NCBI GenBank assembly: GCA_934233745.1
Contig: CAKQGN010000001.1
Location: 194,621 to 258,620 of the forward strand
Direction: 5' to 3'
Length of the DNA stretch: 64,000 nucleotides
From: an uncultured Clostridia bacterium
Lineage (GTDB): Bacteria > Bacillota > Clostridia > Christensenellales > CAG-917
Below, piece after piece: positions 1,431 through 24,275 of this stretch. The notes under the pieces are model-generated. The model did no database searches. It saw nothing but the letters and a program-made list of their open reading frames with translations, and was not told the origin of the DNA. Positions within the stretch are counted from its first letter, which is position 1, and the number at the start of each line of letters is the position of its first letter. The position numbers and the translations under genes are program-made.

Positions 1431-1459
1431 TTGATTTGAATGTATATATATTATAAAAT
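1431..1459 (+). promoter_or_regulatory. Candidate sigma-A promoter of the giant gene (TTGATT-17-TAAAAT)
   Basis: The -35 TTGATT is at 1431-1436 and the -10 TAAAAT at 1454-1459, about 45 nt upstream of the ATG at 1504. Confidence 0.3.
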
Positions 1460-1503
1460 ATATAAAATCAATGCGACGTGGGCGCATACACGGAGAGAAA
1501 AAC

Positions 1504-4500
1504 ATGAGAAATTCAAGGACAAAAACACAAACGAAATTGAGAAATTACATAAAGCTGACCGCAGGCGCATTGTTGCTTGCTATTACGTTTGTCCTTGTCT
1601 TTGCCGGCACGCTCTCCGGTGCTTTCGGCATTGAAAACGAACTGCAACAAAACGGTATTATTGAAAATAACGTGGCAAGCGCGACAGGGACAACAAAAAC
1701 AGTTACGTATAATGCTTCCGACACGACTTTTACTGCGACACCAAACAAGAAATGGAAAAATGATCTTACAAAACAATCTATTGTAACATCATACCCATCA
1801 AAACACCAACAAAAATGGAAGAAGTTGTTTGAAGATTTTGTTGGCGATACTACATATGATGGTTGCCATGGATATTATGATAGAGATACTTATACGGAGA
1901 ATGCCACAGTTGCGTTGAACAAAACCGAGATAACGCAATTTCTTTCCAGCGGAATTGGAGAGTCGGATGACCTTTATTATACAGTGTCTGCCACCGCAAC
2001 CATTAAAATGGGCGCATGGCAGGACGGATCGGCAACTATTACGCAAAAAGTATCGGCGTGGGTCAGTGACAATGCAACACATAATAGCAACACTCAAGGA
2101 GAGTTGTTTAGTCATCAGCAATCAAAAAAAGAAGAAGCTTGGAAACACATCTTGTCGCTTGAGAGCAATATTTTCAAAACAAAGCCCACGACAAGCACTT
2201 TGTATTTTGGAGTGCATTACGAGCATAAAAATAATGCTAGCGGCACCGCGTTTGGAGCTAACACATATGATTTTATGTTGGTTGAGTCGTTTGAGATTAC
2301 AATCACAAAGTATAGCGGATATTCCGGTGGAGATGGTACTCCGGCTTCTCCATACATCTTGGCAAAAAGAGCAGATTTTGATGATCTTTCTGTAAACGTT
2401 GCATCGGGGTCAACTTATTCTGGCAAGTATTTTATCGTACAACCCGACACGACGATCGAAGGACAAAATGCAACTACAATAGCAATGGGGGACACGTATT
2501 TTACCCCGATTGGAAACTCTACGACAAAGTTTGCAGGCACGTTGCTTGGCAATGGTTGCACGATAAACGGTTTGGTTACAAGCGGTCAACACTCAGGGTT
2601 GTTTGGCTACGTAAACAATGCGCGTATCGATAGTTTGACTGTCAATGTGTCAAATGATTCAGACAGCACTTCGGTAGGCGGTCTTGTCGGGGTTGTGAAC
2701 GGCACAACAACTATAACCAATTGCAACGTTACGGGATCTGTAAAAGGAACACACCAAATAGGTGGTTTTGTCGGTTTTGCGCAAGATTGTGTGCTGACCA
2801 TTTCAAACGGTACCAATTCAGCAACAATAACCACGACAAGTCAATCTTCCAACGACAAAGGAAGGACAAGCGGCGGCGGAATCGTCGGATACGTAAACGC
2901 CAATGCTACAGTCACAATAAACGACGTGACCAACACGGGGGAAGTGAAAACAACGTCAGGCAACGCCAATTCGGGACTTGGTGGTATCGTAGGTTTTGCA
3001 AACGGCGGAACAAACATAAACAATTGTCACAATACTGCCTCAATCACGGGCCGTGCCGGTCTTGGCGGTATTGTCGGATATACGGCAAACGGTTCTATCG
3101 TGGGCTGCCGTAACGACGGAAACATCACTTCGAGCAAACCATATAATTTGGGCGCAGGAGAGGCATCATACAGCGGCGGTATTGCAGGTTATTGCTATGC
3201 AGACGTGGCAAAGTGCTACAATTCGGGCACAGTCAAGACAACATCAGATTGGGGAAATTCCAATATTGTTGGCGGTATTGCGGCTTATTTGGGTTCGGGC
3301 AGGAATGTCAAATATTGCTATAACGGCGGTTGGATTGAGGGTTCGGATTATGTTGGCGGTATTGTCGGAAGAAGGGATGGTACGGTTTCATATAGCTATC
3401 AAGCAGGCAAGATAAAGGGACTGTATAATAAAACTTCAACCATAGGACATATCACGGGCAATGATACATCATCGAAGATAAGCACTTGTTGGACATTGCC
3501 GGGTGCAAGCAATTTAACAACTGTCACAAACACATTCAATCATAACGGATATACGGTCAGTTCCGAAGCCAACGTCGCAATGAAACCTGCATTTGGCAAT
3601 GCAGTGCTTGAAAGTTGGGAAGAGATCACCGATACGGGCGCAACAAGCGATACGTTTAGCGAAATCACGGGAATTGATCAATTTGTTTTTTATCCAAACA
3701 ACAATGAACATAAAATTGAAAACAACCAATACTTGTTTGTGTATGCCACGGATGCAAACGCCGTTGCGTTGGTGCCCAATCATATCGATTCCGGTGTGTC
3801 GGTTATCACCGACACAACCACAGCGAGTGTTGCAAAAACGGTGCCGTTTGTATCTAGATTTTATTTTAATGCGAGTAGTGACAAAAATCTTGTTGCCAGC
3901 ATCAGCCCTATCGATGCTCCGCTGACGAGTACGCAGACTGTATATAACGGCAGTGGACAAAAGGTCACGACTGATGTTGTTGGTGCAGATGTCCAAGAGA
4001 AGAGTTACTATTTCACGAGCGGCAATGACAATGCATTGGCAAAGAACAAAGTTATTGACGCAGGTGAGTATGATATTGTCACCGAAGTGACGATGAAAGT
4101 CGGAGAAAATACATATGTTGTCGTAGGCAGACAAGTGCATGAAACAAAGTGGACGATTAAAACACGCCCAATCAGTTTTTGGAATAAAATCTATTATTAT
4201 GGCGAGACGCCGACAAGTGCCCCTGTCCCTCAGTCGATGAGCGGTGATAAGGGCTTATTGAACGGGCACACATTTATTTGCACTCACGCAGATGAACTTA
4301 CGTATGATTTTATGTACGGCGCAATACCCAATGCGCAAAAAGAAGTCACAATCAATATGACCGGCGAAATACGTGATGCAGCCGGCAATGATGTTACTTA
4401 CAATTACGATTTTCAAAATGGGACATTTACCATTTCAATGCGAGAGGGCAACTTTGGCGTGAAAGGCACCACGGATATTGTCAACAATCCTTGGGGAAGT

Positions 4501-7500
4501 CAGGGCAACCCGTTTGTTATAAAAACCGCTCAACATCTTGTCAACCTCTCAAAAATCGTCAACGGCGAGACTCCCACCAATGCGGATACCTCGCAGATTG
4601 TAAACAGTATTTTTGACAACACTACATACACACATGTTGTGAGCAACAATACAATTAGGTATCAAAATTGCTATTTTGTCATTGTCAATGACCTTGATAT
4701 GAATGGCAGCGGTTTTGCTCCAATAGGCAAGGATGCGACCTATTTCTTTGAAGGCAACATCAGCGGCGTTAAGTCGATTGAAGATACATTGCAACAAAAT
4801 AGGTTTATCAGCAACTTGACGGTTAATCTCGCCTCAACGGACAACGTGGGCTTGTTTGGGTATGTCCTCAAAAAAGGCACAGAAAAGCCTTATATCAAAC
4901 ACATCGTTTTGAATAATAGTTGCTCGTTTGTCGGCAAGAGCAACGTTGGTTCGATTGTAGGTTGGGCTCAAGACGCAGTCATCCAAAACTGCATCAACAA
5001 CGCAACCGTGGAGGGGAAAGGCGAAAACGCAGGTGGAATTGTCGGCAAAAACTTCGGCACCGAAACTTCAAATTGCGAAAACCACGGCACAGTCAAGGGT
5101 GTGAAAAACGTCGGCGGAATTGCAGGTACGCTAGACTGGGGGGTTATTTCAAATGTGCAAAACTCCGCTACGGTCGAGGCTTCGGGAGAAAACTGCGGCG
5201 GTATTGTAGGATATATGATATCTTATTCCACTCTCAAGAATGTGACCAACAATGCACAAGTAAATGGCGGTAACAAAACAGGCGGCGCGCTTGGATATTA
5301 TGAAAAAAAAGCTACGTATAGCGTACAACCTATCTATGGCTTGACAAACAATAACTCTGTTGAAGGTTTATCAAACGTTGGAGGTATCATCGGTTGCGTT
5401 GCGGGAGATTTGGTGTTTGACGGAAACAATGAATCTCAAAAATGCACTATGAGCGGTGGGTCTGTCAAGGGTACATTCAACGTTGGCGGTCTTGTCGGTG
5501 GTGTTGAAGACGGCTCGACTGTGACATTGACAAATTTCACCAACAATGCCAAAGTCATAGGCGGATATGTTGTGGGCGGACTTGTCGGTCTTTTGAGAGG
5601 TTCGATAAAAAACAGTGTAAACAATGCCGATATAACAAGTGAATACAATAAAGCAGGTACGCCTAGCGGTTTGTCAATTGGTGCATATGTCGGCGGTTTG
5701 GTCGGTGTGGCATATGGGGCTATTTCACACTGTTATAATAGCGGAAATATATCGGCAAGTGGCGATAATAGCGATTTTCTCGGCGGCATTGTCGGATATA
5801 CAAATGCAAACGTTGCGTACTGTACAAGTCTTGAAAATTCGATTATTTCAGGCTCCAATCAAGTCGGCGGTATCGTTGGCAAAGCGAGCGGCAACAATGT
5901 AAAAATCGAGTATTGCTATTTCGGCGGAAAGATAAACGGACTTTGGAATGATAATAGAGCCAAACTGGATTTCATTTGCGGTGAGATAATCGATGGCTTA
6001 GTCAGCAACAGTTGGAAGTTGCCAAATGCGCAAAACGGAGACACGGGTAATAGGACATACACAAATGCAGGTAATGCTTTGACTATTGCGACCGGAATGA
6101 CGTTCAAGCCATATTTTGTACAAGAGGGGAGTGAACACGATACTGAATGGGAGCAAATTGTTTCCAAGAATATAGTCGGATTCAGCGTGTCGGGCAATGT
6201 GCCGACAAATAGTTATTTTAACTCCGACAACGGTAACGATACTGCATATGTGAAACCCGATAAAACCAACGGATTTGCCGCAAACAGCACAAGCGGCAAC
6301 GTTACGGCATGGTATGGCGCGGATTTTGGCAGTGACGTGCGTTGTAGTATCGTTGAGATTCAAGTCGACACAACTCCCGACGAATATAACGGCGAGAAAC
6401 AAGGTTTGACAAGAGAAGACGTGTATATGCCGTCAGCCAACAATGGTGTATATGAGGTGCAGTTTGCATACAAAGGCAACAAATATGGCGACGTCATTCC
6501 GGAAGACGTTGACATGTATAATACAACCGTCACTGTGAAAATTGATGAAAAAGTTGTCGGTGTGCGTACAGGTGTACAATATGAAATCACCAAAAAGAAA
6601 GTTACAATCACAAATATTTGGACTTGGAAATATGTGAACGGAAGCAATGCCGACTTCTATAAATTTGAATATAATAAAGACATACAGGGAATGTTGTCTA
6701 TTACTGTTGACGGCGTGCTTGAAAATTCGCATTACACATTAACTCAAACGGAAAATAAAGCCGCGGTCGGTAAATATTCAAGCAGTGTCGTGATATCAGA
6801 TAGAGACTACGAAGTTGAAATCGTATCAAAGTATTGCACAATTCAAAATAACAATGCAAACCTTGAAACGGACAATGCAAAATACGGCATTAAAACAACT
6901 CAAACCAACGCAAACACGTCAAACAGTCAAACCACTTATACATATAATTGGGAGATTGTGCCGTTTGATTTGGCGGCGGATTTTAATAAAAACAACGTGT
7001 GGTTTGGCGGAACAAAGAATTTGATTGTCGGCAATCAAGGCATTGCAAATGTCGAGGGTGATACCACTAAGAGTTTCTATCCTTTGCAGGTAGGTAAGAA
7101 GGGTACGGGCGTGCAACAAGTGCTTGTGTATGCGCAACACAACTACGCAGCAAGCAGTTTTGTGGTGTACGTCAAGTATAACAACGGCAATGTTTTCCCG
7201 CTCACGCGAGACACGGAATACACCGTGGGGACGCTTGAAAACAACGTATTCGGCACATTTAATGTGAACGTGGTGAGCCAAGCCAAACCTGTTGAAGACA
7301 CCAACGTGACGGCAAGAGGCACGGGCAATTTCAGCGGAGATATCACCAAATATTACACCGCGATGTTCAGCGATTTCGGCGGAAACGTGACGGGGGCAAA
7401 TTGGGGCAGTGCAGGCAACCCCTATGTCATAAGCAAGCCCGAACATTTGTTGCGACTCAGCCAAATCGTCAACGGCGGCACGGCTTGGAACTCGATTATA

Positions 7501-10500
7501 ACAACAAATAACGCTTTGTGTATTTCACCTCAAGGCACGGCAGTTGCCACGGATAGAGCGTACAGTGGCGCGTATTTCCTTGTCACCGCAGACATCGATA
7601 TGACGGGCAATATCAGCACGGACGGCGTTTACAACTTCTTGCCGATCGGACACAGAAACGAACAAAGCCAAACCGATATGCCTTTCTCCGGCACATTTGA
7701 CGGTAATGGCAAAAAAATAAAGTTTGTCTACAATGTAAATCGAAACAATTTTTACAATAACAACAAGGCGCATTCGGATTATGTCGGGCTTTTCGGCTAT
7801 ATTGCAGGCTACAAGGTTGATGCCGAACAAAAGTATGCAACAATCAAAAACCTAAGCATTGAAAGCATGGATGGAAACGAGGTGGATGACAACGGCGGAA
7901 TCATCGGCAAGGATTATGTCGGAGGTATCGCCGGATACGCAGTTGATTCAAAACTGTACAACGTGAGTATGATGTATGGCAGCTGGGTGCGTGGCGAGAA
8001 CTATGTTGGCGGCATAGTCGGCTATGGCGAAAACACATGGTTGGAAGTAGGAAACGAACACGACAATGCGATAACATATGCGAACGTCGGCGGTATACAA
8101 TACGTCGGAGGCATCGTCGGGAAGTGGATTGTCAGTTCCGAGGAGCAAATCGGCGGCGGTAAGGACAAACAAGAATACATAACCACAACACTCGGCACAG
8201 ACGTCAACGGTACACAGTATGTAGGCGGTCTTGTAGGTTGGCTGGACACATCGACATGTACTGACTCGGTTGTTTTTGCACCGATAGTCAAAGGCAGCGA
8301 TCAAAACAAGAACGTTGTCAAAGGCACAGAATATGTCGGTGCGTTGTTCGGCGTGGTTGTCGGCAACGGATACCACCAAAGCGCAACACAGGGCAAGTAC
8401 ACGGCTATCGTCATAAGCGACCAAAAAGTAAACAATATAACGCTTCAAACAAACACAAGCGCAAAAGTTGTCGGTGGACTTGTCGGATATGCCGAGAGCG
8501 TTGGTATTTTGTTTGAAACGGATTGGAATACAAGTTCCACGACATTCACGCTTGACGATTCGACGTCGTTCTTCGGCGGTGTTGTCGGCGTGCTCGGCAA
8601 AAACTCAACGATAGAAGCTATAATAGTAACCAAAGAAGGTGACGGATCCTATCTCACAGGCTCGGAGCATACAATCTTAAACAACACTGCGCTTGGCGCA
8701 AGCGGAAAACCCATAGGCAGTTTTGTGGGCGGAATCGTGGGCTATGTGTCCTCGCAAGCAGGCACATATTGGGAAGCGAACACAACAATCTTCGGCAACG
8801 GAATATCGCTTGTCAACAGTGGTCAAATTCATGCAACCGGTTATGCCGGCGGTATTTTCGGCGCGCTCGGAGATCTTAGCACAAGCGTTGCGCAGACTTT
8901 TGAAAACGACACGAATTCCATTCTTTACAATGTTCTCACAAAAGGCGTAAGAAGCGGCAATGCCAACACCACGCTCGGCATCGCTCCGACAGTTGACAGC
9001 GCATATTTCATCGGAGCAAAAGGCAAACTTGTCAACAGCGCAAGCCTTTCGGTGACAGACGGCTATGTTGGCGGTATTGCAGGTTACAGCGGCGCAAAAG
9101 TCCGCTTTGTATTGCGCAATACGCCTCAAACGGGAGCAATCGCCACCGCAAATCTCAATGTGTACAGCGGCGGCAACGATATCTATATCAACGGAAGCTA
9201 TGCAGGCGGAATTGCAGGCTATCTCTCGTTTGGTCTTGACCACGAATTGCAATACGTCGTGGTGCAAGCCAAGTTTGCAAGCCAAGACGCAACGCGCGTT
9301 GGCGGTCTTGTGGGATATATGGGCAGCGGCAAGGTGGAAAGATGCGTTGTCACAAGCCCCGACGGCACAATCTCGGCAAACACAGACAACTATCAAGGCA
9401 CGGAATATGTGGGCGGTCTTGTGGGCGAAACCCAAAGCGCAATCATACGCAACAGCGTGTCAACAGGCTTCAATCTTGAACAAACCTCCAACACCAAGGG
9501 CGGTTTGCTCGGCTACGGCGCAAACCCGACGATTGATTCGAGCTGGACGTTCTATATCGCAAAATCCGGTGCAACATACAGCACCGTCAGCAAAAACACC
9601 TATGGCAAATATATCCTTGTGGACACAGACATTGTAACCACCGACATTGTAACCACCGACAAAAGTTCTTATCCGACATTTGCCAAACTTTGCGAATTTA
9701 CAGGCATTGCTAAAAACGGAACGGCGGGTATGCTTGAATTTGCAATCAACGTGCCGACGCAAAGACAACTCGCTTTCTACAACGCAAGTGGCAGCGATGT
9801 CGAAACGTCCAACAAAGACAGTTTCAAAGGCTTTGAAAACCGCAACAATGTGTTGACAATCAAATTGGACATGGCAAGTGGCACAAGCATGCAAATATGC
9901 GTTGTGGATATCGAATTTGTCAACGTTCCGCAACATGGCACGGACAATGACGAAGCCGCACATGCAGTTGTTGAATCTACATACAAAAAACCCTCAAACA
10001 GCACAAGATATCATGTTGATGTGACGCAAGCAAACTTCGATATTGCAAATACGAAACAAGTCACGCATATCAAAGCGAACATTTACTTTGACTATGACGG
10101 TGATGGGCACTATATTAGTATCGGTGATGGCAATGTCGAACCGAACAACCGTATTGGTGGTGAATATGATTCAGAAGAGATCATTCCCGGCAGCAGTGCG
10201 GAAAATCCGCTCACTATCAGCAGTCAAGAGGAGTGGAACGACTTTGCGTGGAGCATTTATACGGGTGCAAACGATTATGCAGGGCAATACGTGAAGTTGC
10301 TGGCAAGTAAAATTGTTATAAACACCGGTGAAAACAAAAACGGCAAGCATAAAGGCACAAAGTTCAACTACGACTACGACTTCACGTCTGTCAGCACACC
10401 AAACAAAAGCCAAGAAGATACCAAAAACGCAAATTCCAACATGGGCTACAACTTGGCTGGCAACATCTCGCAAGGCAGTTCGGAAGTTGAAAAAGTGACG

Positions 10501-13500: not shown

Positions 13501-16500
13501 GCAGGCGGTATGTCCAATGCAAAAGGCGGTTATATCGACTCCTGCACGGTCGGAGCAAACACCACAATCGAACGAATAAATCAAGGCGGTGGCACAGTTT
13601 CTGAAAACCCCAAGCACGGCACTGCAATCGGCGGTCTTGTCGGTTTCACCGAGGACTCAACAGACACTACAAGCCCGCTCACCACGACGTTTAGCGGAAC
13701 ATCGGCTTTCAACGGCACGATAACCGTTTCGGTTGAGGCATCCTATCAATCATCAACATTGGACGCGAAGATAAGCTGTATCGGAGGTATCGTGGGCGAT
13801 ATGGGTTCGGGCGCAAACTTCGCGTCGGGATCGAATGTCACCGTGGACGGAACAATCAATATCACGCTTGCGGCTGCAAACGTCGGCGGCGTTGCGGGCC
13901 GTACAAACACTGCAACGTTTATCGGCAATTTTGTTGTCAAACCGAATATGCAAACCGATAAAGCCGAAAACGTCGGCGGTTTCATCGGCAAGAACGTTGG
14001 CACGGTGTACATACTTGCCGACACCACTGAGCGCATCGTGAACGACAAGCTCAACGGCACGGATATCACCATTGGCGGAACGATTCGAGGCACGAGCGAG
14101 GTGGGCGGCTTCATCGGCGTCAACAACTCGGGCAGCTCGCTCAATATCGGCTCAAACGTCGCAAACGCAAAGCCGTATAGATCGGGTACGCTGTCCATTA
14201 CAATTGAAAACGGGACGATCACCGGTGGCGATAATGTCGGCGGTATCGTCGGCAAAAACGAGGGTGCGGACGGCGGCGCAAGCTATGCGAGCATAGATAT
14301 CGTCAAAGGTACTATAACTCAACGAGGCACGATCCAAGGCGCAAACTATGTGGGAGGCATCATCGGACTCAACGACGGCTTGCTCACTACGGGCGGTGGC
14401 GAGGCGGATACGTCTATCGGCGGAACTACGCTTGATGAAAATCAAATCGGGCTTATCAAAAACCTCTCGATCACCAACAACGGCAACGTCACGGGTTCGG
14501 GCAACTATGTCGGCGGCGTGGTCGGCAAGCTCGATTCGCCTGCCGAAGATTCGGGCAAGGGTGCAATCGCAGGTACGTTTACAAACAGCGGCACGGTTGT
14601 GGGCAACAACTTTGTGGGCGGCTCGCTCGGTTTTGTCGGCAAAAACGTCACAATCACTGCAAAGAATAATGTTGCAACATTGTTTGTCAATGACGGCGAA
14701 GTCAATGCGACAGGCTACTTTGTGGGCGGTTCTATCGGCGCACTTGTCGGAAAGATTCTAGGCGAAAACTCGTCCGTTGCGGTCAAGTTTGAAAACAAAA
14801 AGAAAGTCAATGCGACAGGCTTTGTGGGCGGATCTATCGGCGTGCTGGCAGGTCCCGTTTCCTATGCGCAATTTGTCAATAGCTCGGACGGCCTCGAAAT
14901 CGCGGCGGTTAACTCGGTCGGCGGCTCGGTGGGTTACATCGGTGTGCCCTCGTTGCTTAGCTATGAGTTGATCGGCTTCACTGCGCATCAGATCGACATA
15001 AATAACACTCACTTCGAGGCTTCGGGAACTCTCAAGGCAAATCCGAGCCAAGACGCTATCAATGCGGCAAAGGAAGATAAAGAGGATAACGGTTGGGGCG
15101 GCGTCGGCGGCGCAATCGGAGTCATGGGCGCGGCTATCAATTCGTGGACAGACAACACATACTACGCCAACGGCAACGTCAGTGCAAACGTCATAGAAAA
15201 CGGTATAGAAACAGGCATATACAACGTCGGCGGCATCGTCGGACTTATCAATGCAGGCAACATCACGATAAGCAACATGCTCGCCTATCGCACAACAGTA
15301 ACCGGCGGTAAAAACGTCGGCGGCATCGTCGGTGCGACCACGGGCGCAAAAACCGTCATCAATTCCGCATACGCAATAGAAGGCACGTTCAGCGGCACTG
15401 AAAACGTGGGCGGCATCATCGGTCTTGCCAAAGACGATACCGACGCAAGCACTTCGTACTGGGTTAAAGGCTACGCAAACAGCGATATAGCCACGTATGA
15501 CGTAAAAGATTTGTCCAAACTCGGCTTCACAACCGGCAAAGCAACAACCGGCTGGTTCTTCCTGTATGCAAACGATGCAACCGGCGCAAACGGACTGGGA
15601 ACAATCAACACTTCACACTCCACAAATTCCGATTTGCAATACTGGAAACGCATTGCCGACGCATACACCGCAAGCGAGCGACAAACGAAAATAAAAGACG
15701 AAACCGGCGTAGAATATACATTAGCAACGATTCCGCTTAAATCGGATATCGTCAAGGACAAAGATATCAATGGCACAGATACCAAATCTCCGCAAAAATC
15801 CACGCTCTACGCAACCGCCACGGCGGCAGAAGTGACAGAAAAAGGCTATTATATGTATACAGCGACGTCGAATAACGATGTTAAGCCGTCTGTCATATAC
15901 GATAACGGAGTGTATTATATTAGCGTAAAAACAAACGTTATCAATGCGGAGGACGAAAAAGTCCAGGCGCAAAATGTTGCAGTGTTCTACCGTTCGGTTT
16001 CTTCAAGTAAAGAAGCATTGATCTACAATGGTTATTTGCGTAATGCCATTATTGGTTTGGACGGAGTTTACTTGTATGAAAACCCAATCGGCGACAATGA
16101 AACTCCGACAATTAATGGCTATAAAGGACAATACATATTTACCGCTACAACAACTATCAAAAACGCAGACGGTTCGACAAGCGAAGTGAACGAGGCTCAA
16201 TCGGATCCGAACACCTATTCTTCCGTCATTAAGATTTACTATGTCGACGACAACGGCACGGCACGTCTTGTCGGCGGCAATACCGAATTGGCATGGAAGA
16301 TCACCGAGAGAGAATTGGCGGTTGCATTTGAACATACTACGAATAGAACGTATGGAACAGGAACCGAAGACAACACGACCGATATGACGGTTACAATAGA
16401 CAACATTGCACCAAAAAGAGGTGTTACTGTCCCGATTAGAATAGTTGTTTCGTATGGGGCACAAGAGGATAGTCGTGTTATATTCACATGGGATGGTACA

Positions 16501-19500
16501 AAATTTAATGGCGCTGACGAAAATATAAAACTTACGTCGCTTCCAATGACGCAAAGCGGAACTTTGAGCGATAAGGATAAAGAATCGACAAGTGAAACCA
16601 TTGAAGATGAGGCCACATATCAACTTGTCGTAAAATTGTTTTTCAAACAAGCCAAATCGTATACGATTACCGTTTTGGATAGCTCACAAAAAGCTCGCTA
16701 CACATTCAAGAAAAACGGAGGAAGCGCGAGTGCTGAAGTCAGCGATGAATTTACTGTGCTTCCTGCCGAGTTGAGGCTGGTGAGTTCTTACGCTACATCC
16801 AGCGCATATGACGGAACGTACAAAGGCAAAGAATGGTTGGTAACAGGATTCAAGTATAATGATGGTGTTCTTCAATTTGCAGAGTTTTTACCTTCGTTTA
16901 ATATAAAATATAAAAACGGAGATGTGACAACAAAAGCAATGACTGCCGATAATATGACAACAGGAGTGGACTTTAACGGGCCAAGGGTTTCAGTTGCAGG
17001 ACCATCCAACGGAAATCTGACCATTTCACTTGTCAATGCCATCAACAAAGGTGAGTACTATCTTACTTTTGGGAAAATCGCAGCGGGCAACTATACGCTT
17101 AAAATCGAAGATTATTCATTTAGCATCGTAGAAATACAAATTGAAATTTCATGCGATGATAATGGAAAAAGCAAAATATATGACGGAAACGCCAAGGATG
17201 TAAAATTCACATTCAAAGCGAGCGCACCCGCCGGTGTTACGTTTGACGGTATAAGTGAGTATAAAACCTTTATCAGCAAGTTCTTTAAGATTAACAATCA
17301 AACTATTGAAACAAACAGTTTGAAACTTGTTGATAACAAAACAATCACATTGACATTGCAAACGGAGAAAGATGCAGCAACATATAAATTTGTTTTCGGA
17401 AAGGGTGAGAAATACGACGACCACATTAAAAACTGTGCTCTTAAACCAGCAACACTTCCGACATATACATACACTATAACCAAACGTTCGATCACATTGA
17501 GCACAACGCCGACGAGCACCAAAACTTACATTTACAACACCGAGCATCAAGGGTTGAGTCAAGTCAAATTGAATGGTGAGAGTGGCGATGTGGGCATTGT
17601 CTCAGGCGACACCGTCATGGTTAAGGTGAGCGTTCCGGGTGGGGATCCCTCGTCGAAGACTCTGTCGTTTGACAATCAAACGCTTGAGGTAACGGCAGGC
17701 ATTTCGACTATCGACGCAAACCAATATGTCGCATCTTTCGATTTGGATGACGCATCGAGCAAAAAGAACTACACGTTGAGTGCAACAAACGTGTCTTGGA
17801 AGATAGACAAATACAAAATAATGATTGGTGAGTTTGAGATTGGGGCTGAAAAAACATACAACGCACAAGCAGAAGTGCCAAAAATCAATGTCACCAACAG
17901 CGAAGTATCGGTTAGCGGAAACACGTTTACATATGGTACAGATACCTTTACTCTTGAGTATGCTGTTTCTTACAATAACCAAACCTATGCGAGCAACAAT
18001 CTTGTCAATGCAGGCACCTACAAGATTAAAATAGGCACCTCAAATGGAAAGATACATGCCAAGCATAGCGACGGGAATGATGCGTCAAACAACTATGAGT
18101 TTGGAAATAGCTCAACAGAACATCAATACGTGATCAATCCTTGCGAGATAAAAATCGGTTGGGAAAAGAAAACATTTGTGTATAATGCAAGTAATTGGAA
18201 ACTAAATGTTGCAAGTATCGAAATCAACAACAAGACCAAGACGGTTACAAACAATAGAGTTCAAACCGGTTTGGGCAACGATACTTTGACGTTCAGTCGT
18301 GGTGGCGGCGGAACAGACGTGGGAAGTTATACAACAAATGTAACGTCGCATAGTGTCAGTGTCAGTGTAGAACCAAACCACGGCGTAAGGCCTATTGCAG
18401 GCAACTATAAGATTGTATCTGGTGCCACAAGCGACAAGTTTTCCATCACGCCGTCCAAACTGAAGATTTTCTATGCAGGCGGTACGACAAGCAAAGTTTA
18501 TGATGCGGGATTTGGTATATCAGGCAAGCCGTTCGTGTTTAATACTCAATCCCAAAATGGCGGCGCACACGGCACTTCGGAGTTGTTTGATATTAGCTAT
18601 GTGTACAAAGACAAAAATGTCGGCAACGACAAGGAAGTTGTGTTTACCTATGTGTTGAAGAACGGAAATGCGAACTACGAATACGTTGGTACGGGAACGG
18701 AAAGTCAAAACAAAGGACAAATCACGCCGGCACATATCAAGGTTGCGCTCGACAAGTTGCGTAGTGGAAAAGCGACAAGGACGTTTACCAACGAACCTTA
18801 TTATGGTGGAAAAGACGGCGCAAGCGGCGGCAAAAACGACGGCAAAAGCACAGTGTATCGTTCGGGTGAAGGTTTCCGCATAAGCGGCGTGTTCGGCAAC
18901 GACGACATCAAAGTTGTTGCAAAATACGCCGAGGCAGGCGACGATAGAGTGATGTTTGACAAATATGTCAACGACATTGTGAAAAATACAGACGAAACGT
19001 TTGCCAAGGCGGCGGCAGGCACGCATTTGAAGATGCTTGTGTTTGAAATGACGGGTGGTGACGCAACAAACTACACGTTCAACGTATACGATACATCTGA
19101 CAAAGCATACAGCAAAAACAATGGCGATAGCCAAACGCCGGTGAATGTTTATGACAAGGATGATGAGAAAAACAACAAAGATAAACTGTCCCAAATCAAA
19201 ATCGAAATCACCGTCAAAACGTACAAAGTTGAGTATAAAAACGCCGCTCAAAGTTATGCCAATGCAGACAATACTTACAACACAAATTGGGAAAGAGTTG
19301 GAGTATCCAACAACCCGCCAGGAGTTACAGTAACCGTTTCCAACGGCTGGATGTATGCCGACGGACAAGACCATGGTGATGATGAACAAGCCGAAAAGAA
19401 AGTCTACAAAGCGTACACAACCATTAGAGGCTCGCAAAACAGTGTCTTGTTGGGTGCAAAGATAAGCGGTATCGATGGAATGGAACTCAACTATAAGATG

Positions 19501-21093
19501 GTCAATCAGCCCATTCTTACCATCGGATACTTTGTCGTAGACAACAACGACGTGTTTGAAATCGGTTCGGCATCGAGTTTAATGATTGCATCCTACTATT
19601 GGTGGGTTGCGCAAAACGGTCAAAACCCCGACTTCAACCTGCCGCTCGTTGCAACTTCAACATGGCATAAGATTGTCAGCAACGATGATTATATGACAAA
19701 ACCGTTTGAGAAACCGAGCGATGCACCCAACGATGTTGATATGACGGGTTGGGATTGGGATATGTATTTTGCTTGGTTTGAACAACAATATAATGTCAAG
19801 ATTTTCCTCAATGAAACAGGAATTTCAAACGAGGACGGCACGTGGGGCTATTATACAACCGGCGAAGAATCGCAACAAACACAATATAAAAAGTATAGAA
19901 TGGTGCGTGATTTCAGCGGCAAATTGTCAGAGTCCGATATTGCCATACTTGAGGCGTTCTTCCCGAAAGAAAAAGGGTGGGGCGTTGGAAAAACGTATCT
20001 TGACAACTTCCTCAATACTTCAGTCGGAAGTGTGTTGACGGCAGTCGGAAGTGTGTTTAGATGGTATAATGGTAGTGTAGGACAGTTTGAGTTTGACGGC
20101 AACGGATATGTCATAGAGTATCTCAACATTATGGGCTACGACAAAGAGAATGTCGGCTTGTTTGACATCATCGGCGCAAACGGAAGTGTCAAAAATCTGC
20201 ATTTGAGAAATATCACAATCAATGCAAATCAAGGCAACGTCGGCGGTATTGCCGGAAGTATTGCCGCGGCTGAGGGTGAGGGCGATGCAACAAATGTCAC
20301 CAACGTGTCCTTCCACGGCAAGATTACCGCAACGGGCGGCACGGTCGGCGGCTTGTTCGGCACAAGCGCAAGAGCAATCAACGGCGCAATCGTCCTTGGC
20401 GAGATAAGCGCAAGCGGCGCAAACGTCGGTGGCGTTGTCGGCACTGCAAAAGCAGACTTAACCAAAGTTGTGTCAATGATGCAAATCACCGCAAGCGGCG
20501 GCACGGTTGGAGCGTTTACAAGCACTCAAAACCCAACAATCTCAGATTCTTTCCATATGCATAATGCAGTGTGGAAGAGCGGCACGGGCTTCGTAAACGT
20601 TGAAGGCAAAAACGTCGGCTACAATGATTTGATGAGCGGTTCAAACTCGCTTTATGCAAACGCCGCCTCCGATTCAGGCACATACGACGTTATCAACGAA
20701 ACGTTTGCCGACAGCGGTCAAAACGTCAATCCGCGCCAAAGCAAACGCTTGAGAGATATGGTTTCCGTGTATCTATTGATGTATTCTTTGAAAGTCAATG
20801 GCGACAAGTACACCATAAGCGCGTCAAGTTGGCTTGTCGGTTCGGCGGATGGCACAGACGCGAAACCGATTGCGATTGCCAACAAACAAAACGTATCGCT
20901 TTTGCGCGAGCTACGCTTTGCGGCGTTTGTGCTAAAAGCCAACGTGAGCATTGACATTGCAAGCACGTTTGGCGGCTCGTTCTATGGCAGCGTGACAAGT
21001 GAGAACGGCAAAGACTATAAGATAACTTGCAACAAGCAGATGTTCGAGGTATACGCAACCACACCTCCGGCGTGGCTTGAAGTAAAACCTTAA
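1504..21093 (+). CDS. Giant (about 6,529 aa) N-terminally anchored surface protein with GLUG-motif beta-helix repeats alternating with MBG/Ig-like repeats
   Basis: One uninterrupted ORF (track 1471..21093). The ATG at 1504 has a GGAGAG RBS. The N-terminus has a basic stretch plus one hydrophobic helix (LTAGALLLAITFVLVFAGTLSGAFG). Dozens of G-G-[ILV]-[VA]-G units occur about every 20-30 aa (VGGIVG, VGGLVG, AGGIAG), matching the GLUG motif and a parallel beta-helix. Six modules each open with a G-x-x-x-P-[YF]-x-I type segment at about nt 2326, 4486, 7396, 10186, 12388 and 19552. Between them, especially 15450-19540, are 90-110-aa repeats with junctions of the form (A/G)NY..I.P..I.I...K.Y(D/N)(G/A), which are MBG-like. 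No LPXTG, SLH or other C-terminal anchor is visible. Confidence 0.9.
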   Translation: MRNSRTKTQTKLRNYIKLTAGALLLAITFVLVFAGTLSGAFGIENELQQNGIIENNVASATGTTKTVTYNASDTTFTATPNKKWKNDLTKQSIVTSYPSKHQQKWKKLFEDFVGDTTYDGCHGYYDRDTYTENATVALNKTEITQFLSSGIGESDDLYYTVSATATIKMGAWQDGSATITQKVSAWVSDNATHNSNTQGELFSHQQSKKEEAWKHILSLESNIFKTKPTTSTLYFGVHYEHKNNASGTAFGANTYDFMLVESFEITITKYSGYSGGDGTPASPYILAKRADFDDLSVNVASGSTYSGKYFIVQPDTTIEGQNATTIAMGDTYFTPIGNSTTKFAGTLLGNGCTINGLVTSGQHSGLFGYVNNARIDSLTVNVSNDSDSTSVGGLVGVVNGTTTITNCNVTGSVKGTHQIGGFVGFAQDCVLTISNGTNSATITTTSQSSNDKGRTSGGGIVGYVNANATVTINDVTNTGEVKTTSGNANSGLGGIVGFANGGTNINNCHNTASITGRAGLGGIVGYTANGSIVGCRNDGNITSSKPYNLGAGEASYSGGIAGYCYADVAKCYNSGTVKTTSDWGNSNIVGGIAAYLGSGRNVKYCYNGGWIEGSDYVGGIVGRRDGTVSYSYQAGKIKGLYNKTSTIGHITGNDTSSKISTCWTLPGASNLTTVTNTFNHNGYTVSSEANVAMKPAFGNAVLESWEEITDTGATSDTFSEITGIDQFVFYPNNNEHKIENNQYLFVYATDANAVALVPNHIDSGVSVITDTTTASVAKTVPFVSRFYFNASSDKNLVASISPIDAPLTSTQTVYNGSGQKVTTDVVGADVQEKSYYFTSGNDNALAKNKVIDAGEYDIVTEVTMKVGENTYVVVGRQVHETKWTIKTRPISFWNKIYYYGETPTSAPVPQSMSGDKGLLNGHTFICTHADELTYDFMYGAIPNAQKEVTINMTGEIRDAAGNDVTYNYDFQNGTFTISMREGNFGVKGTTDIVNNPWGSQGNPFVIKTAQHLVNLSKIVNGETPTNADTSQIVNSIFDNTTYTHVVSNNTIRYQNCYFVIVNDLDMNGSGFAPIGKDATYFFEGNISGVKSIEDTLQQNRFISNLTVNLASTDNVGLFGYVLKKGTEKPYIKHIVLNNSCSFVGKSNVGSIVGWAQDAVIQNCINNATVEGKGENAGGIVGKNFGTETSNCENHGTVKGVKNVGGIAGTLDWGVISNVQNSATVEASGENCGGIVGYMISYSTLKNVTNNAQVNGGNKTGGALGYYEKKATYSVQPIYGLTNNNSVEGLSNVGGIIGCVAGDLVFDGNNESQKCTMSGGSVKGTFNVGGLVGGVEDGSTVTLTNFTNNAKVIGGYVVGGLVGLLRGSIKNSVNNADITSEYNKAGTPSGLSIGAYVGGLVGVAYGAISHCYNSGNISASGDNSDFLGGIVGYTNANVAYCTSLENSIISGSNQVGGIVGKASGNNVKIEYCYFGGKINGLWNDNRAKLDFICGEIIDGLVSNSWKLPNAQNGDTGNRTYTNAGNALTIATGMTFKPYFVQEGSEHDTEWEQIVSKNIVGFSVSGNVPTNSYFNSDNGNDTAYVKPDKTNGFAANSTSGNVTAWYGADFGSDVRCSIVEIQVDTTPDEYNGEKQGLTREDVYMPSANNGVYEVQFAYKGNKYGDVIPEDVDMYNTTVTVKIDEKVVGVRTGVQYEITKKKVTITNIWTWKYVNGSNADFYKFEYNKDIQGMLSITVDGVLENSHYTLTQTENKAAVGKYSSSVVISDRDYEVEIVSKYCTIQNNNANLETDNAKYGIKTTQTNANTSNSQTTYTYNWEIVPFDLAADFNKNNVWFGGTKNLIVGNQGIANVEGDTTKSFYPLQVGKKGTGVQQVLVYAQHNYAASSFVVYVKYNNGNVFPLTRDTEYTVGTLENNVFGTFNVNVVSQAKPVEDTNVTARGTGNFSGDITKYYTAMFSDFGGNVTGANWGSAGNPYVISKPEHLLRLSQIVNGGTAWNSIITTNNALCISPQGTAVATDRAYSGAYFLVTADIDMTGNISTDGVYNFLPIGHRNEQSQTDMPFSGTFDGNGKKIKFVYNVNRNNFYNNNKAHSDYVGLFGYIAGYKVDAEQKYATIKNLSIESMDGNEVDDNGGIIGKDYVGGIAGYAVDSKLYNVSMMYGSWVRGENYVGGIVGYGENTWLEVGNEHDNAITYANVGGIQYVGGIVGKWIVSSEEQIGGGKDKQEYITTTLGTDVNGTQYVGGLVGWLDTSTCTDSVVFAPIVKGSDQNKNVVKGTEYVGALFGVVVGNGYHQSATQGKYTAIVISDQKVNNITLQTNTSAKVVGGLVGYAESVGILFETDWNTSSTTFTLDDSTSFFGGVVGVLGKNSTIEAIIVTKEGDGSYLTGSEHTILNNTALGASGKPIGSFVGGIVGYVSSQAGTYWEANTTIFGNGISLVNSGQIHATGYAGGIFGALGDLSTSVAQTFENDTNSILYNVLTKGVRSGNANTTLGIAPTVDSAYFIGAKGKLVNSASLSVTDGYVGGIAGYSGAKVRFVLRNTPQTGAIATANLNVYSGGNDIYINGSYAGGIAGYLSFGLDHELQYVVVQAKFASQDATRVGGLVGYMGSGKVERCVVTSPDGTISANTDNYQGTEYVGGLVGETQSAIIRNSVSTGFNLEQTSNTKGGLLGYGANPTIDSSWTFYIAKSGATYSTVSKNTYGKYILVDTDIVTTDIVTTDKSSYPTFAKLCEFTGIAKNGTAGMLEFAINVPTQRQLAFYNASGSDVETSNKDSFKGFENRNNVLTIKLDMASGTSMQICVVDIEFVNVPQHGTDNDEAAHAVVESTYKKPSNSTRYHVDVTQANFDIANTKQVTHIKANIYFDYDGDGHYISIGDGNVEPNNRIGGEYDSEEIIPGSSAENPLTISSQEEWNDFAWSIYTGANDYAGQYVKLLASKIVINTGENKNGKHKGTKFNYDYDFTSVSTPNKSQEDTKNANSNMGYNLAGNISQGSSEVEKVTVDGVQGATTPSFKGHFDGNGNTIEITYTSGGYHRISVFPNAAGATFKHLTIKGTIQAASQADGKGNEENDKKDIVSKTAAYDIAGFVGKPFGTLKFYNCKNEADIIGLRNVGGIVGYNAGGQSITLEACVNTGDITSLQGSYTLGGKNSDTYNYDDGLDGTGVGETNVGYTFGTGGIIGSYIGNIQIESCRNSGKIIGGHNVGGIIGLHNGKQESFATLTINNCANTGDILANSGYWGEDQGGAKDNPSRGVRQSIFGYAGGLVGKTSRYSSLKMFASYNMGTVITYSNIVGGLVGAVGALSKTSKNTGTDTLLTGSKSVIAYCYNNGTVHSGGTYPKQVKERLSGRENYGGTISGGIAGIVGNIKISNCYNTGDIIAWGVVGYSGSWQLRSGGIVGQSEPTGDTYVVEFETLYNAGSIMAKAKNTHVGVEWIGIAYYMNEKLRYGGAISGYCDHSEITSRITSYNVYSIKYPVGTKILKKDINSANKYKESDYAETDFHEQRRGDYLADGGVAGIGASQEGLTVSGTTFDSYEQLTARLNARDDVVPRATEYTGNNKINIIQSIETLTEGIDYTQPKIDGKMYDGWIYVYGCLPQLAMFALDTQNGLSMHSVGYRKDQYGEYNATGESAGSDQYPYIIKDGIDLMGMQALVDNGFDFNGKIIEFANSTNNLSGVCSETIVFPTTSSTSTNLKDSNAYKAKDSKGNYHEGKSYHLFAKGALCNQGWSDDKGNVNSVAQEYGTWIENNYRNLGESKNTTLNLQNFIAIGRKGNSFKGTINGQQGTAEASFATIIDSLRVTIKGYKNTHAGLFSTIENAIVQYVGVGGNSQVFSHEKVGTTVVATAGGIVGMVYGNSVVENCIVKGSTVVGAYGSNAYAGGIAGMADPKQGNTYNAGITTTIRNCSISSSGRIESAKSNIGGVLGYVGGDAGANEKGNSVRIEGCEVQKAAIQAASSATESSHIGGVLGYGSDYVAAFITGCSVGNGADTVTIKGEHSLGGIAGGMSNAKGGYIDSCTVGANTTIERINQGGGTVSENPKHGTAIGGLVGFTEDSTDTTSPLTTTFSGTSAFNGTITVSVEASYQSSTLDAKISCIGGIVGDMGSGANFASGSNVTVDGTINITLAAANVGGVAGRTNTATFIGNFVVKPNMQTDKAENVGGFIGKNVGTVYILADTTERIVNDKLNGTDITIGGTIRGTSEVGGFIGVNNSGSSLNIGSNVANAKPYRSGTLSITIENGTITGGDNVGGIVGKNEGADGGASYASIDIVKGTITQRGTIQGANYVGGIIGLNDGLLTTGGGEADTSIGGTTLDENQIGLIKNLSITNNGNVTGSGNYVGGVVGKLDSPAEDSGKGAIAGTFTNSGTVVGNNFVGGSLGFVGKNVTITAKNNVATLFVNDGEVNATGYFVGGSIGALVGKILGENSSVAVKFENKKKVNATGFVGGSIGVLAGPVSYAQFVNSSDGLEIAAVNSVGGSVGYIGVPSLLSYELIGFTAHQIDINNTHFEASGTLKANPSQDAINAAKEDKEDNGWGGVGGAIGVMGAAINSWTDNTYYANGNVSANVIENGIETGIYNVGGIVGLINAGNITISNMLAYRTTVTGGKNVGGIVGATTGAKTVINSAYAIEGTFSGTENVGGIIGLAKDDTDASTSYWVKGYANSDIATYDVKDLSKLGFTTGKATTGWFFLYANDATGANGLGTINTSHSTNSDLQYWKRIADAYTASERQTKIKDETGVEYTLATIPLKSDIVKDKDINGTDTKSPQKSTLYATATAAEVTEKGYYMYTATSNNDVKPSVIYDNGVYYISVKTNVINAEDEKVQAQNVAVFYRSVSSSKEALIYNGYLRNAIIGLDGVYLYENPIGDNETPTINGYKGQYIFTATTTIKNADGSTSEVNEAQSDPNTYSSVIKIYYVDDNGTARLVGGNTELAWKITERELAVAFEHTTNRTYGTGTEDNTTDMTVTIDNIAPKRGVTVPIRIVVSYGAQEDSRVIFTWDGTKFNGADENIKLTSLPMTQSGTLSDKDKESTSETIEDEATYQLVVKLFFKQAKSYTITVLDSSQKARYTFKKNGGSASAEVSDEFTVLPAELRLVSSYATSSAYDGTYKGKEWLVTGFKYNDGVLQFAEFLPSFNIKYKNGDVTTKAMTADNMTTGVDFNGPRVSVAGPSNGNLTISLVNAINKGEYYLTFGKIAAGNYTLKIEDYSFSIVEIQIEISCDDNGKSKIYDGNAKDVKFTFKASAPAGVTFDGISEYKTFISKFFKINNQTIETNSLKLVDNKTITLTLQTEKDAATYKFVFGKGEKYDDHIKNCALKPATLPTYTYTITKRSITLSTTPTSTKTYIYNTEHQGLSQVKLNGESGDVGIVSGDTVMVKVSVPGGDPSSKTLSFDNQTLEVTAGISTIDANQYVASFDLDDASSKKNYTLSATNVSWKIDKYKIMIGEFEIGAEKTYNAQAEVPKINVTNSEVSVSGNTFTYGTDTFTLEYAVSYNNQTYASNNLVNAGTYKIKIGTSNGKIHAKHSDGNDASNNYEFGNSSTEHQYVINPCEIKIGWEKKTFVYNASNWKLNVASIEINNKTKTVTNNRVQTGLGNDTLTFSRGGGGTDVGSYTTNVTSHSVSVSVEPNHGVRPIAGNYKIVSGATSDKFSITPSKLKIFYAGGTTSKVYDAGFGISGKPFVFNTQSQNGGAHGTSELFDISYVYKDKNVGNDKEVVFTYVLKNGNANYEYVGTGTESQNKGQITPAHIKVALDKLRSGKATRTFTNEPYYGGKDGASGGKNDGKSTVYRSGEGFRISGVFGNDDIKVVAKYAEAGDDRVMFDKYVNDIVKNTDETFAKAAAGTHLKMLVFEMTGGDATNYTFNVYDTSDKAYSKNNGDSQTPVNVYDKDDEKNNKDKLSQIKIEITVKTYKVEYKNAAQSYANADNTYNTNWERVGVSNNPPGVTVTVSNGWMYADGQDHGDDEQAEKKVYKAYTTIRGSQNSVLLGAKISGIDGMELNYKMVNQPILTIGYFVVDNNDVFEIGSASSLMIASYYWWVAQNGQNPDFNLPLVATSTWHKIVSNDDYMTKPFEKPSDAPNDVDMTGWDWDMYFAWFEQQYNVKIFLNETGISNEDGTWGYYTTGEESQQTQYKKYRMVRDFSGKLSESDIAILEAFFPKEKGWGVGKTYLDNFLNTSVGSVLTAVGSVFRWYNGSVGQFEFDGNGYVIEYLNIMGYDKENVGLFDIIGANGSVKNLHLRNITINANQGNVGGIAGSIAAAEGEGDATNVTNVSFHGKITATGGTVGGLFGTSARAINGAIVLGEISASGANVGGVVGTAKADLTKVVSMMQITASGGTVGAFTSTQNPTISDSFHMHNAVWKSGTGFVNVEGKNVGYNDLMSGSNSLYANAASDSGTYDVINETFADSGQNVNPRQSKRLRDMVSVYLLMYSLKVNGDKYTISASSWLVGSADGTDAKPIAIANKQNVSLLRELRFAAFVLKANVSIDIASTFGGSFYGSVTSENGKDYKITCNKQMFEVYATTPPAWLEVKP
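9628..9660 (+). repeat. In-frame 15-bp perfect tandem duplication (GACATTGTAACCACC x2.2) inside the giant gene
   Basis: gacattgtaaccacc gacattgtaaccacc gac encodes DIVTT-DIVTT-D. Confidence 0.95.
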
Positions 21094-21098
21094 TATTC

Positions 21099-21122
21099 GG
21101 CGCAGACGGCATGCCGTCTGCG
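21099..21122. terminator. Perfect 24-bp palindrome GCGCAGACGGCA/TGCCGTCTGCGC just after the giant-gene stop; possible attenuator or terminator
   Basis: The 12-bp arms are fully complementary, 6 nt after the stop codon. No clean U-tract follows (AAAATGCGTTTTC), so termination efficiency is uncertain. Confidence 0.3.
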
Positions 21123-21370
21123 CAAAATGCGTTTTCAAGCGAAATCGACATTCTAACCGTGCAAAATGCGCCTTTTGTCGTTTTTGATACAAAAATAAGG
21201 CATATTGCGCGTTGTGTCGGTGAAATCGATATTCTAACCGCACTGATTGCGGGTTTTGTGTCTGCCGCAAGAAAATACGAGCGTAAACCCCAATAAAAAC
21301 GCTTTATAAATTGTAATTTATATATAGTATATACAAAGTGCAACGCATATGCACAAGGAAGCAAGAGCAA

Positions 21371-23945: not shown

Positions 23946-23976
23946 GAACATATCGCAACGATATGTTCTTTTTTTG
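23946..23976 (+). terminator. Rho-independent terminator of the three-gene operon
   Basis: Stem-loop GAACATATCG-CAA-CGATATGTTC followed by TTTTTTT. Confidence 0.75.
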
Positions 23977-24192: not shown

Positions 24193-24268
24193 TGGAGCTG
24201 ATGACCAGACTTGAACTGGTGACCTCATCCTTACCAAGGATGTGCTCTACCACCTGAGCCACATCAGC
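24193..24268 (-). tRNA. tRNA-Thr (anticodon GGT)
   Basis: The reverse complement GCTGATGTGGCTCAGGTGGTAGAGCACATCCTTGGTAAGGATGAGGTCACCAGTTCAAGTCTGGTCATCAGCTCCA folds as a cloverleaf. The acceptor is GCTGATG/CATCAGC, the anticodon loop is TTGGTAA, the T-loop is TTCAAGT, and CCA is encoded. Confidence 0.92.
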
Positions 24269-24275
24269 ATATTGT

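Follow-up and report, generated by a model that had tools for sequence, protein, structure and literature searches.

We analyzed a 64,000-nucleotide stretch of the genome of an uncultured Clostridia bacterium of the CAG-917 lineage (contig CAKQGN010000001.1, positions 194,621 to 258,620; hereafter, the window), which contains an intact gene of 19.6 kb (1504..21093, plus strand) for a giant protein of six modules. In our assessment this protein is probably exported by the Sec route and forms a fiber-like surface structure, composed of six beta-helix rods and beta-sandwich joints, that serves strain-specific binding; its surface location, its binding function, and the end by which the cell holds it are what we infer from the data presented below. 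The fold and the theme of giant adhesin-like proteins are already known, and what is new are the domain map, the test of the MBG call, the rejection of an island, the census of the genus, the absence of sortase and SLH, and the mosaic of alleles with a conserved leader and at least nine classes of first domains. No source provided a name for the homologue clusters listed or for the members of the seven clusters that were looked up, and the papers searched offered almost nothing on GLUG proteins beyond passing mentions.

An intact gene encoding a protein of six modules

The gene lies in an open reading frame that runs uninterrupted from position 1471 to 21093 of the plus strand. It comprises 6,529 codons plus the stop codon at 21093 and occupies 30.6% of the window, in agreement with the original prediction, made from the sequence alone, of a single frame filling 31% of it. 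A Shine-Dalgarno sequence read from the DNA (GGAGAG, 1492..1497, plus strand) lies 6 nt ahead of the ATG at 1504, and the leaders of the orthologues in nine other species start at the methionine that matches this codon; we therefore consider it the best start, resulting in a product of 6,529 residues in which glycine, threonine, asparagine, serine, and valine are abundant.

The six conserved entry segments that had been proposed to open the modules were all found, namely, at residues 276, 997, 1967, 2897, 3631, and 6017, and the runs of G-G turns expected behind them were recovered as well. The motif GG[ILVFA][VAILFTG]G occurs 60 times in the protein, compared with approximately 2 copies expected from an estimate based on amino acid composition. 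All 60 copies fall into six clusters (7, 10, 14, 8, 18, and 3 turns), in which they are mostly 27 to 60 residues apart, and there are zero copies in the first domain or the spacers.

The domain map, given here as residues and window positions on the plus strand, begins with a conserved leader (residues 1 to 60; 1504..1683), in which a basic N-region and a hydrophobic segment (residues 16 to 34) are followed by SGAFGIENELQQNGIIENNVASA, and continues with a hypervariable cassette, the first domain (residues 61 to 275; 1684..2328), which is common to 3 of 125 homologues. Module 1 (residues 276 to 690; 2329..3573) is a GLUG beta-helix of 7 turns according to Pfam (Glug, 45.1 bits, best at residues 388 to 413) and is followed by spacer 1 (residues 691 to 996; 3574..4491), which is devoid of the GLUG motif and present in approximately 37 of the 125 homologues. 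Module 2 (residues 997 to 1530; 4492..6093), a GLUG beta-helix of 10 turns (Pfam Glug, 44.8 and 42.9 bits), precedes spacer 2 (residues 1531 to 1966; 6094..7401), which is likewise without the GLUG motif and varies among alleles. Module 3 (residues 1967 to 2700; 7402..9603) is a GLUG beta-helix of 14 turns (Pfam Glug, best at residues 2632 to 2655), and spacer 3 (residues 2701 to 2896; 9604..10191) is predicted by an AlphaFold model to consist of beta-strand domains. Module 4 (residues 2897 to 3630; 10192..12393), a beta-helix with 8 strict motif turns whose fold is supported by the AlphaFold model and a Foldseek search, is followed by module 5 (residues 3631 to 4719; 12394..15660), the largest GLUG-like block with 18 turns, as defined by BLAST similarity and motif count. 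A long spacer (residues 4720 to 6016; 15661..19551) of divergent units of approximately 110 residues, putatively of the YDG/MBG type on the basis of weak hidden Markov model (HMM) and hhalign matches, leads to module 6 and the conserved tail (residues 6017 to 6529; 19552..21090), with 3 turns by the motif count. The expectation that spacers separate the modules was borne out for most of them but not for modules 4 and 5, which abut; module 4 ends near residue 3610, and the entry of module 5 is at residue 3631.

BLAST of 150-residue pieces of the giant against itself showed that the modules are mutually 28 to 43% identical, with 32 to 39% between modules 1 and 2, and the self-BLAST of the whole protein returned the identity hit alone. 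The longest DNA repeats within the gene measure 26 to 53 nt at 60 to 80% identity, and all of them code for the VGGIVG turn. Considering the divergence of the modules and the absence of long DNA repeats, a collapse of the assembly is unlikely. The sole notable tandem repeat of the gene is a 15-bp in-frame duplication at 9624..9661 (2.5 copies, 95% matches) that encodes DIVTT-DIVTT at the end of module 3. The G+C content along the gene varies between 0.41 and 0.54 (0.53 to 0.54 at 13001 to 15000 and 0.41 at 11001 to 13000), compared with 0.45 for the contig; glycine-rich coding, mosaic ancestry, or a combination of the two may account for these swings.

The window stems from a metagenome-type assembly of 12 contigs (genome of 1.65 Mb, 97.5% complete), a provenance that could in principle produce a long frame as an assembly artefact or preserve a dead gene. 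We assign this explanation a negligible probability, as the same open frame recurs in independent assemblies, long DNA repeats prone to collapse are absent, and the order of the six modules is conserved. Public assemblies contain at least 675 homologue clusters (90% identity) of 6,000 to 7,100 residues, and genomes of species of the same genus have open frames of 5,960 to 7,230 residues. Among 32 human-gut metagenome loci, the frame is open over 18 kb in approximately 30, whereas one starts later and one is broken. The comparison of module number among relatives that had been proposed gave six motif clusters in 111 of the 124 full-length homologues.

Fold of the modules and nature of the spacers

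The Pfam family Glug (PF07581) has a gathering score of 20.5 bits, and its match to residues 1 to 3000 of the giant reached 71.4 bits. When pieces of 760 residues were searched, four of them scored between 42.9 and 49.5 bits and a fifth 21.7 bits, with the best stretches located in modules 1 to 3. No Pfam family matched residues 3226 to 6529 at meaningful E-values; module 5 resembles modules 1 and 2 by BLAST and is present in all homologues at 70 to 88% identity. The searches of the giant against NCBIfam and against the sequences of the PDB returned nothing.

The model that AlphaFold generated for residues 2690 to 3630, built on 27 sequences from the window and the metagenome loci, had a predicted template modeling (TM) score of 0.70 and a core with a predicted local distance difference test (pLDDT) of 80 to 93 that is broken by low-confidence loops. 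In this model, spacer 3 (model residues 12 to 207) consists mostly of strands, with a pLDDT of 50 to 68 at residues 31 to 110 and of 74 to 85 at residues 111 to 180. The entry segment of module 4 was modeled as a short strand and a 13-residue capping helix, behind which the module forms at least nine rungs, each of three short strands (pLDDT of 80 to 93). The top six Foldseek matches to the module 4 model, at probabilities of 0.93 to 1.00, are all GLUG-type beta-helix proteins of the same motif family, namely, the immunoglobulin A1 (IgA1) proteases of Streptococcus pneumoniae (with the beta-helix in the N-terminal domain; four states, 7JGJ, 6XJB, 7UVL, and 6XJA) and Gemella haemolysans (7UVK) and the Bacteroides ovatus protein BACOVA_03286 (3N6Z; target TM score of 0.51). 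Sequence identity within the structural matches is only 11 to 13%. Module 4 is accordingly modeled as a beta-helix, and the earlier call of GLUG beta-helix domains is supported both by the Glug scores over the cut-off and by this model with its Foldseek matches. In the model of residues 5560 to 6529, module 6 has a strand-rich core (pLDDT of 60 to 89) behind a capping helix, and its central part (query residues 180 to 320) also matches many other GLUG-repeat proteins.

The likeness to IgA1 proteases concerns the helix and not the catalytic part. A weak match to Peptidase_M26_N was obtained at the beta-helix of module 1 (E of 0.007, 16.1 bits versus a cut-off of 27.7), but there is no HExxH motif anywhere in the giant and no M26 catalytic region according to Pfam, and the identification as an M26 IgA1 protease of the ZmpA type was ruled out by these two absences. 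The giant also differs from these enzymes in lacking LPXTG and in having six helices per chain, most of which are two to four times longer than the IgA1 protease helix of approximately 290 residues. In IgA1 protease, the beta-helix is the domain that binds the IgA1 antigen-binding fragment (Fab) and gates the active site (PMC7695701), so that the GLUG beta-helix is known as a binding surface.

Other right-handed beta-helices come lower in the Foldseek list, among them autotransporter passengers and phage tailspikes as well as enzymes (fucoidan lyase, pectate lyases, and alginate epimerase/lyase). The matches to the lyases, the epimerase, and tailspike depolymerases could be taken to mean that the modules are enzymes and the giant a multicatalytic polysaccharide lyase or hydrolase acting on host or dietary glycans. 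We regard this as quite improbable, since these matches have E-values of 0.2 to 5 and a low probability and reflect the shared fold. Furthermore, no glycoside hydrolase, lyase, or Beta_helix family was detected in Pfam or NCBIfam even at an E-value of 10, the PDB sequence search gave no match, and the missing HExxH motif excludes an M26 protease as well.

The spacers had been described as MBG/Ig-like (immunoglobulin-like), a call that found partial support. Pfam MBG_2 (PF18676) has no match in the giant, whereas another gene of the same genome contains seven domains over the cut-off, and the hits to MBG (PF17883; 14.4 bits, E of 0.059, cut-off of 23.3; residues 5555 to 5649, window 18166 to 18450) and to YDG (PF18657; 20.2 bits, cut-off of 25; adjacent residues 5652 to 5727, window 18457 to 18684) both remain below the thresholds in this allele. 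However, 10 of the 23 long-spacer segments scanned from orthologous loci match YDG significantly (best E of 1.5e-8), and the long spacer appears to hold at least one YDG-type unit. The alignment of this unit with the rest of the long spacer by hhalign gave weak matches (E of 0.009 to 0.11) approximately 110 residues apart, although an iterated HMM seeded with the unit did not recruit further ones; several additional, very diverged YDG-type units are probably present. The Foldseek list for the model of residues 5560 to 6529 consisted of antibody Fabs at probabilities below 0.1 and was uninformative, and for spacer 1 Pfam returned a noise-level PKD match alone. YDG and MBG_2 domains also occur in an open reading frame of 3,462 residues outside the window (G000:C4:136283-146671, minus strand), which adjoins V-type-ATPase-like genes and whose leader resembles that of the giant (TLVFAAAL...NNIANA).

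Variation among alleles and distribution of the locus

The homologues diverge immediately after NVASA, the end of the 60-residue leader. The first domain of the window's allele (residues 61 to 275) recurs in the 3 homologues mentioned above at 98 to 99% identity and in no other, and it has no match in Pfam or the PDB. The first domains of 123 homologues sort into nine or more classes among which no similarity was detectable. Farther along the protein, residues 700 to 1000, 1200 to 1400, and 1700 to 1800 are common to about one third of the alleles, and residues 1800 to 4700 and the last 330 residues are found in all homologues. Pairwise profiles in steps of 200 residues show blocks of 98 to 100% identity beside blocks of 30 to 50%. 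The position of these blocks differs from pair to pair. This pattern bears the signature of repeated exchange between alleles, which are recombination mosaics. A search of this genome revealed no silent copies of alternative first domains elsewhere, so that the variation exists between strains and does not result from a switch within the cell.

The surroundings of this variable gene are stable. Upstream of the giant are csoR and a copA fragment, and downstream follow, in this order, three small genes, tRNA-Thr and tRNA-Ser (window 24193 to 24364), and a glycerophosphodiester phosphodiesterase (GDPD) gene. In each of the five congeneric species checked, the three small genes and then tRNA genes (tRNA-Thr alone in one) lie behind the giant; GDPD was found in four of the five, and of the three that gave an upstream match, all have copA and two csoR. 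In one species (G016) the tRNA pair has the inverse orientation, and in another (G005) its two genes are separated and on opposite strands; the flanking genes are in place. Identity in the closer species is 82 to 91% for copA and GDPD and 93% for the gene beyond, and for GDPD it drops to 55 to 67% in the two species that are the most distant of those checked. For the giant it is 35 to 55%, and for the small proteins 28 to 71%. The original prediction had seen an island-like context, which is contradicted by flanks (copA and csoR on one side, tRNA-Thr, tRNA-Ser, and GDPD on the other) that are syntenic in all five congeneric species checked. The locus instead evolves fast while keeping its place in the chromosome. 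No integrase family was detected by Pfam among the neighbor genes scanned, and the Rfam search of the surroundings of the giant gene found neither riboswitches nor other RNA families.

Within the genus, we surveyed 52 species-level genomes, of which 34 contain module 5 and 39 the second of the three small genes (partner gene 2). Of these genomes, 32 have both and 11 have neither. In the two genomes with the giant only, the gene is at a contig end or in pieces, and five of the seven with only the partner gene are fragmented or incomplete bins. Among the species lacking the locus, the flanking genes are on different contigs in four, and GDPD was unmatched in a fifth. When 1.84 billion representative proteins were searched with the full C-terminal module, approximately 40 matched it over its full length; almost all of these matches are at the extreme end of proteins of approximately 6,000 to 6,900 residues, and the full module is almost never seen outside the genus. 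A search of genome contigs for the giant gave a single locus (CAVANK010000002.1). It was deposited as Butyrivibrio crossotus but has the leader and the copA flank of the window's genus, and the deposited name may not fit.

Export, partner genes, and retention at the cell

The giant contains a single hydrophobic segment (residues 16 to 34), with a mean Kyte-Doolittle value of 2.29 as compared to 1.52 for the next best. A basic stretch precedes this segment of approximately 19 residues, AGTLSGAFG follows it, and the first 60 residues are near-invariant in approximately 120 homologues and across species. Signal peptidase I requires small residues at its cleavage site, and, by inspection only, the leader triplets VFA|G and SGA|F fit such a site. 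Because they satisfy this rule, the giant may be cleaved and not anchored, and the N-terminal helix may be either an anchor or a cleaved signal peptide.

The absence of a sortase signal and of SLH domains that had been noted for the protein was confirmed and extends to the genome. There is no LPXTG or NPXTN motif in the giant, no match to sortase (PF04203) in the 97.5%-complete genome, and no SLH domain in the giant or elsewhere in the genome. Many other large proteins of this genome are lipoproteins. An open frame of 8,821 residues on contig C3 (minus strand, outside the window), which exceeds the giant in length, has the lipoprotein signal LFGMVAC, and many other open reading frames of more than 1,000 residues in the 1.65-Mb genome start with L-[VA]-A-C lipoboxes. 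BLAST of pieces of the giant (E of 1e-3) detected no paralogue among all open reading frames of the genome, so that the other giants, of 8,821 and 3,462 residues, belong to different families.

The three small genes behind the giant are candidates for partners in retention. Partner gene 1 (21371..22414, plus strand) encodes 347 residues with the N-terminus ...VVMVGASFAWFSNADK and has no Pfam hit; partner gene 2 (22414..23301, plus strand), conserved in position, encodes 295 residues with the N-terminus ...AVSVTAAWFSNFAG; and partner gene 3 (23298..23924, plus strand) encodes 208 residues with an N-terminal helix and BspA-type leucine-rich repeats (Pfam LRR_5, E of 3.6e-10), a protein-binding fold. 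All three products open with a helix and then a related motif (GASFAWFSN, VTAAWFSN, and GVSYAVWTS, respectively). In each of the 27 loci for which enough DNA was available, as in the five species checked, the giant is followed by these genes in an unchanged order, which makes the proposed retention via partner proteins plausible.

Concerning transcription, a promoter-like site (TTGATT-17-TAAAAT, 1431..1459, plus strand) was identified upstream of the giant solely by a consensus scan. A perfect 12+12 palindrome without a T-run was read six bases past the stop codon (21100..21123, plus strand), and weak terminator-like sites occur at 21159 and 21238. Repeated GCAAAATGCG boxes are located at 21141 to 21240, ahead of partner gene 1. 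The palindrome and the boxes may constitute a point of read-through or attenuation between the giant and the partners. A terminator-like hairpin with a T-run (23946..23968, plus strand) follows partner gene 3, and this arrangement would fit a single transcription unit in which read-through is partial.

The N-termini of partner proteins 1 and 2 invite a comparison with the tapA-sipW-tasA system of Bacillus subtilis, in which SipW processes fiber proteins. Among all open reading frames of the genome, the helix-AWF[ST] pattern is clean in four proteins, namely, those of partner genes 1 and 2 and two of 420 residues that adjoin the two SipW-type (TIGR02228) peptidases approximately 240 kb from the giant. 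Apart from the two partners, a helix with A-W-F-S thus occurs only beside SipW-type genes; partner protein 2 is weakly similar to both 420-residue proteins, and the leader of the giant carries a looser AWFS-like version (GTLSGAFG). In contrast to tapA-sipW-tasA, the SipW-type genes are distant, no TasA (Peptidase_M73) domain was detected among the locus proteins scanned, and TIGR04088, the model of the SipW-cognate signal, matches none of the four N-termini of the giant and its partners over threshold, for which reason the SipW link is a lead and not a finding. Besides the two 420-residue ...TATYAWF[ST] proteins and the two SipW-type signal peptidases, the distant cluster itself (G000:C1:451067-463345, approximately 240 kb downstream and outside the window) encodes an acidic protein of 983 residues and an AAA protein that is McrB-like and membrane-anchored.

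Since the genome is without sortase and SLH, the giant is most likely retained by its leader, its conserved C-terminal module, the three co-inherited small proteins that are putatively targeted to the membrane, or a combination of these. An alternative assigns retention to a single element, in that the N-terminal helix would be an uncleaved signal anchor and the sole tether, the C-terminal module the far tip, and the small genes would have a different purpose. The strong conservation of the leader, the one hydrophobic segment of approximately 19 to 20 residues in a protein devoid of other anchor motifs, and the 244-bp spacer with its palindrome between the giant and the small genes are in line with this alternative. 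With this topology, however, the domain that varies most would sit next to the membrane and the module that is best conserved would form the tip, contrary to the usual arrangement in surface proteins under diversifying selection; the two small-residue triplets would permit cleavage; and the linkage of the small genes to the giant held throughout the loci seen. We consider a sole N-terminal tether possible but rather unlikely. The far end is more likely to be the variable one, and this would favor retention through the conserved C-terminal module.

The lack of a covalent anchor system in the genome and the cleavable-looking signal could also indicate that the giant leaves the cell and, instead of a binding fiber, builds an extracellular matrix or coat around the cells, in a genome that invests in several giant exported proteins (8,821, 6,529, and 3,462 residues). 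This appears doubtful, as an end that is hypervariable in the manner of a cassette is seen more typically in recognition surfaces than in bulk matrix, and the partner proteins have membrane-targeting N-termini.

In the interpretation that we favor, that of an exported, cell-held binding fiber, the conserved 60-residue leader would carry the giant across the membrane. Its body would keep a constant framework of six rods, right-handed GLUG beta-helices that each begin with a short strand followed by a capping helix. Beta-sandwich spacers would join the rods, those in the long spacer being of the YDG/MBG type. Taking approximately 0.48 nm per rung and approximately 4 nm per sandwich domain, the extended length may be roughly put at well over 100 nm. 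The first domain and several inner blocks would be exchanged between strains by recombination, as would be expected of a surface structure on which hosts, phages, or neighbors exert diversifying selection. The giant would probably be a binding organelle specific to the strain or, broadly speaking, an adhesin.

Several observations weigh against this interpretation. Modules 5 and 6 were not called by Pfam, and one module alone was modeled well, with a mean pLDDT of only 64.5 for residues 2690 to 3630 and of 49.7 in the poor model of residues 5560 to 6529, which covers long spacer and tail. The Foldseek E-values are weak (best of 1.4e-3, top matches up to 5e-2, none at or below 0.001), a modest level that would be anticipated for a multidomain query with floppy loops. 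If uncleaved, the helix would hold the hypervariable first domain near the membrane, which is a poor fit to a binding tip. TIGR04088 fails to connect either the giant or its partners to SipW, and the link to the partners consists of gene order and co-occurrence among relatives, which are not independent observations.

Gram-positive fibrillar adhesins, such as those of the SasG, SdrD, and Ebh type, follow a plan of a head domain, a repeated stalk, and a sortase-anchored C-terminus. They would share with the giant a very great length, export, a variable terminal domain, a beta-rich repeat stalk, and Ig-like spacers. However, the giant has no LPXTG and its genome no sortase, and its stalk consists mostly of beta-helices that are 28 to 43% alike, in contrast to the tandem, near-identical Ig repeats of these adhesins. 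A long right-handed beta-helix, in a passenger used for binding, is also found in diderm adhesins such as the autotransporters Fap2 and EspP and the two-partner-secretion (TPS) filamentous hemagglutinins, and EspP, EspC, and Fap2 are among the low Foldseek matches (E above 0.4). Unlike these proteins, the giant has, according to Pfam, neither a beta-barrel translocator nor a TPS domain, and it has an ordinary N-terminal signal.

Donor-strand exchange has been reported for TasA fibers. By likeness, the near-invariant peptide behind the helix, FGIENELQQNGIIENNVASA, could be more than a linker, namely, a docking strand that inserts into one of the three partner proteins after cleavage by a signal peptidase, possibly of the SipW type, an idea that we regard as a long shot. 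If true, the giant would stand with its N-terminus on a small pedestal bound to the membrane, and this would represent an undescribed, sortase-independent mounting of exchangeable giants in monoderm gut bacteria.

The bacterium devotes 1.2% of its 1.65-Mb genome to this one gene and still more of it to two other giants. The documented domain map aids the annotation of a family for which public sources gave no name. The giant is also a useful strain marker in metagenomes. With its fixed six-rod plan and shuffled parts, it may be a main interface of a common uncultured human-gut bacterium with its surroundings, and it is a candidate for strain-specific colonization, phage recognition, or antibody binding.

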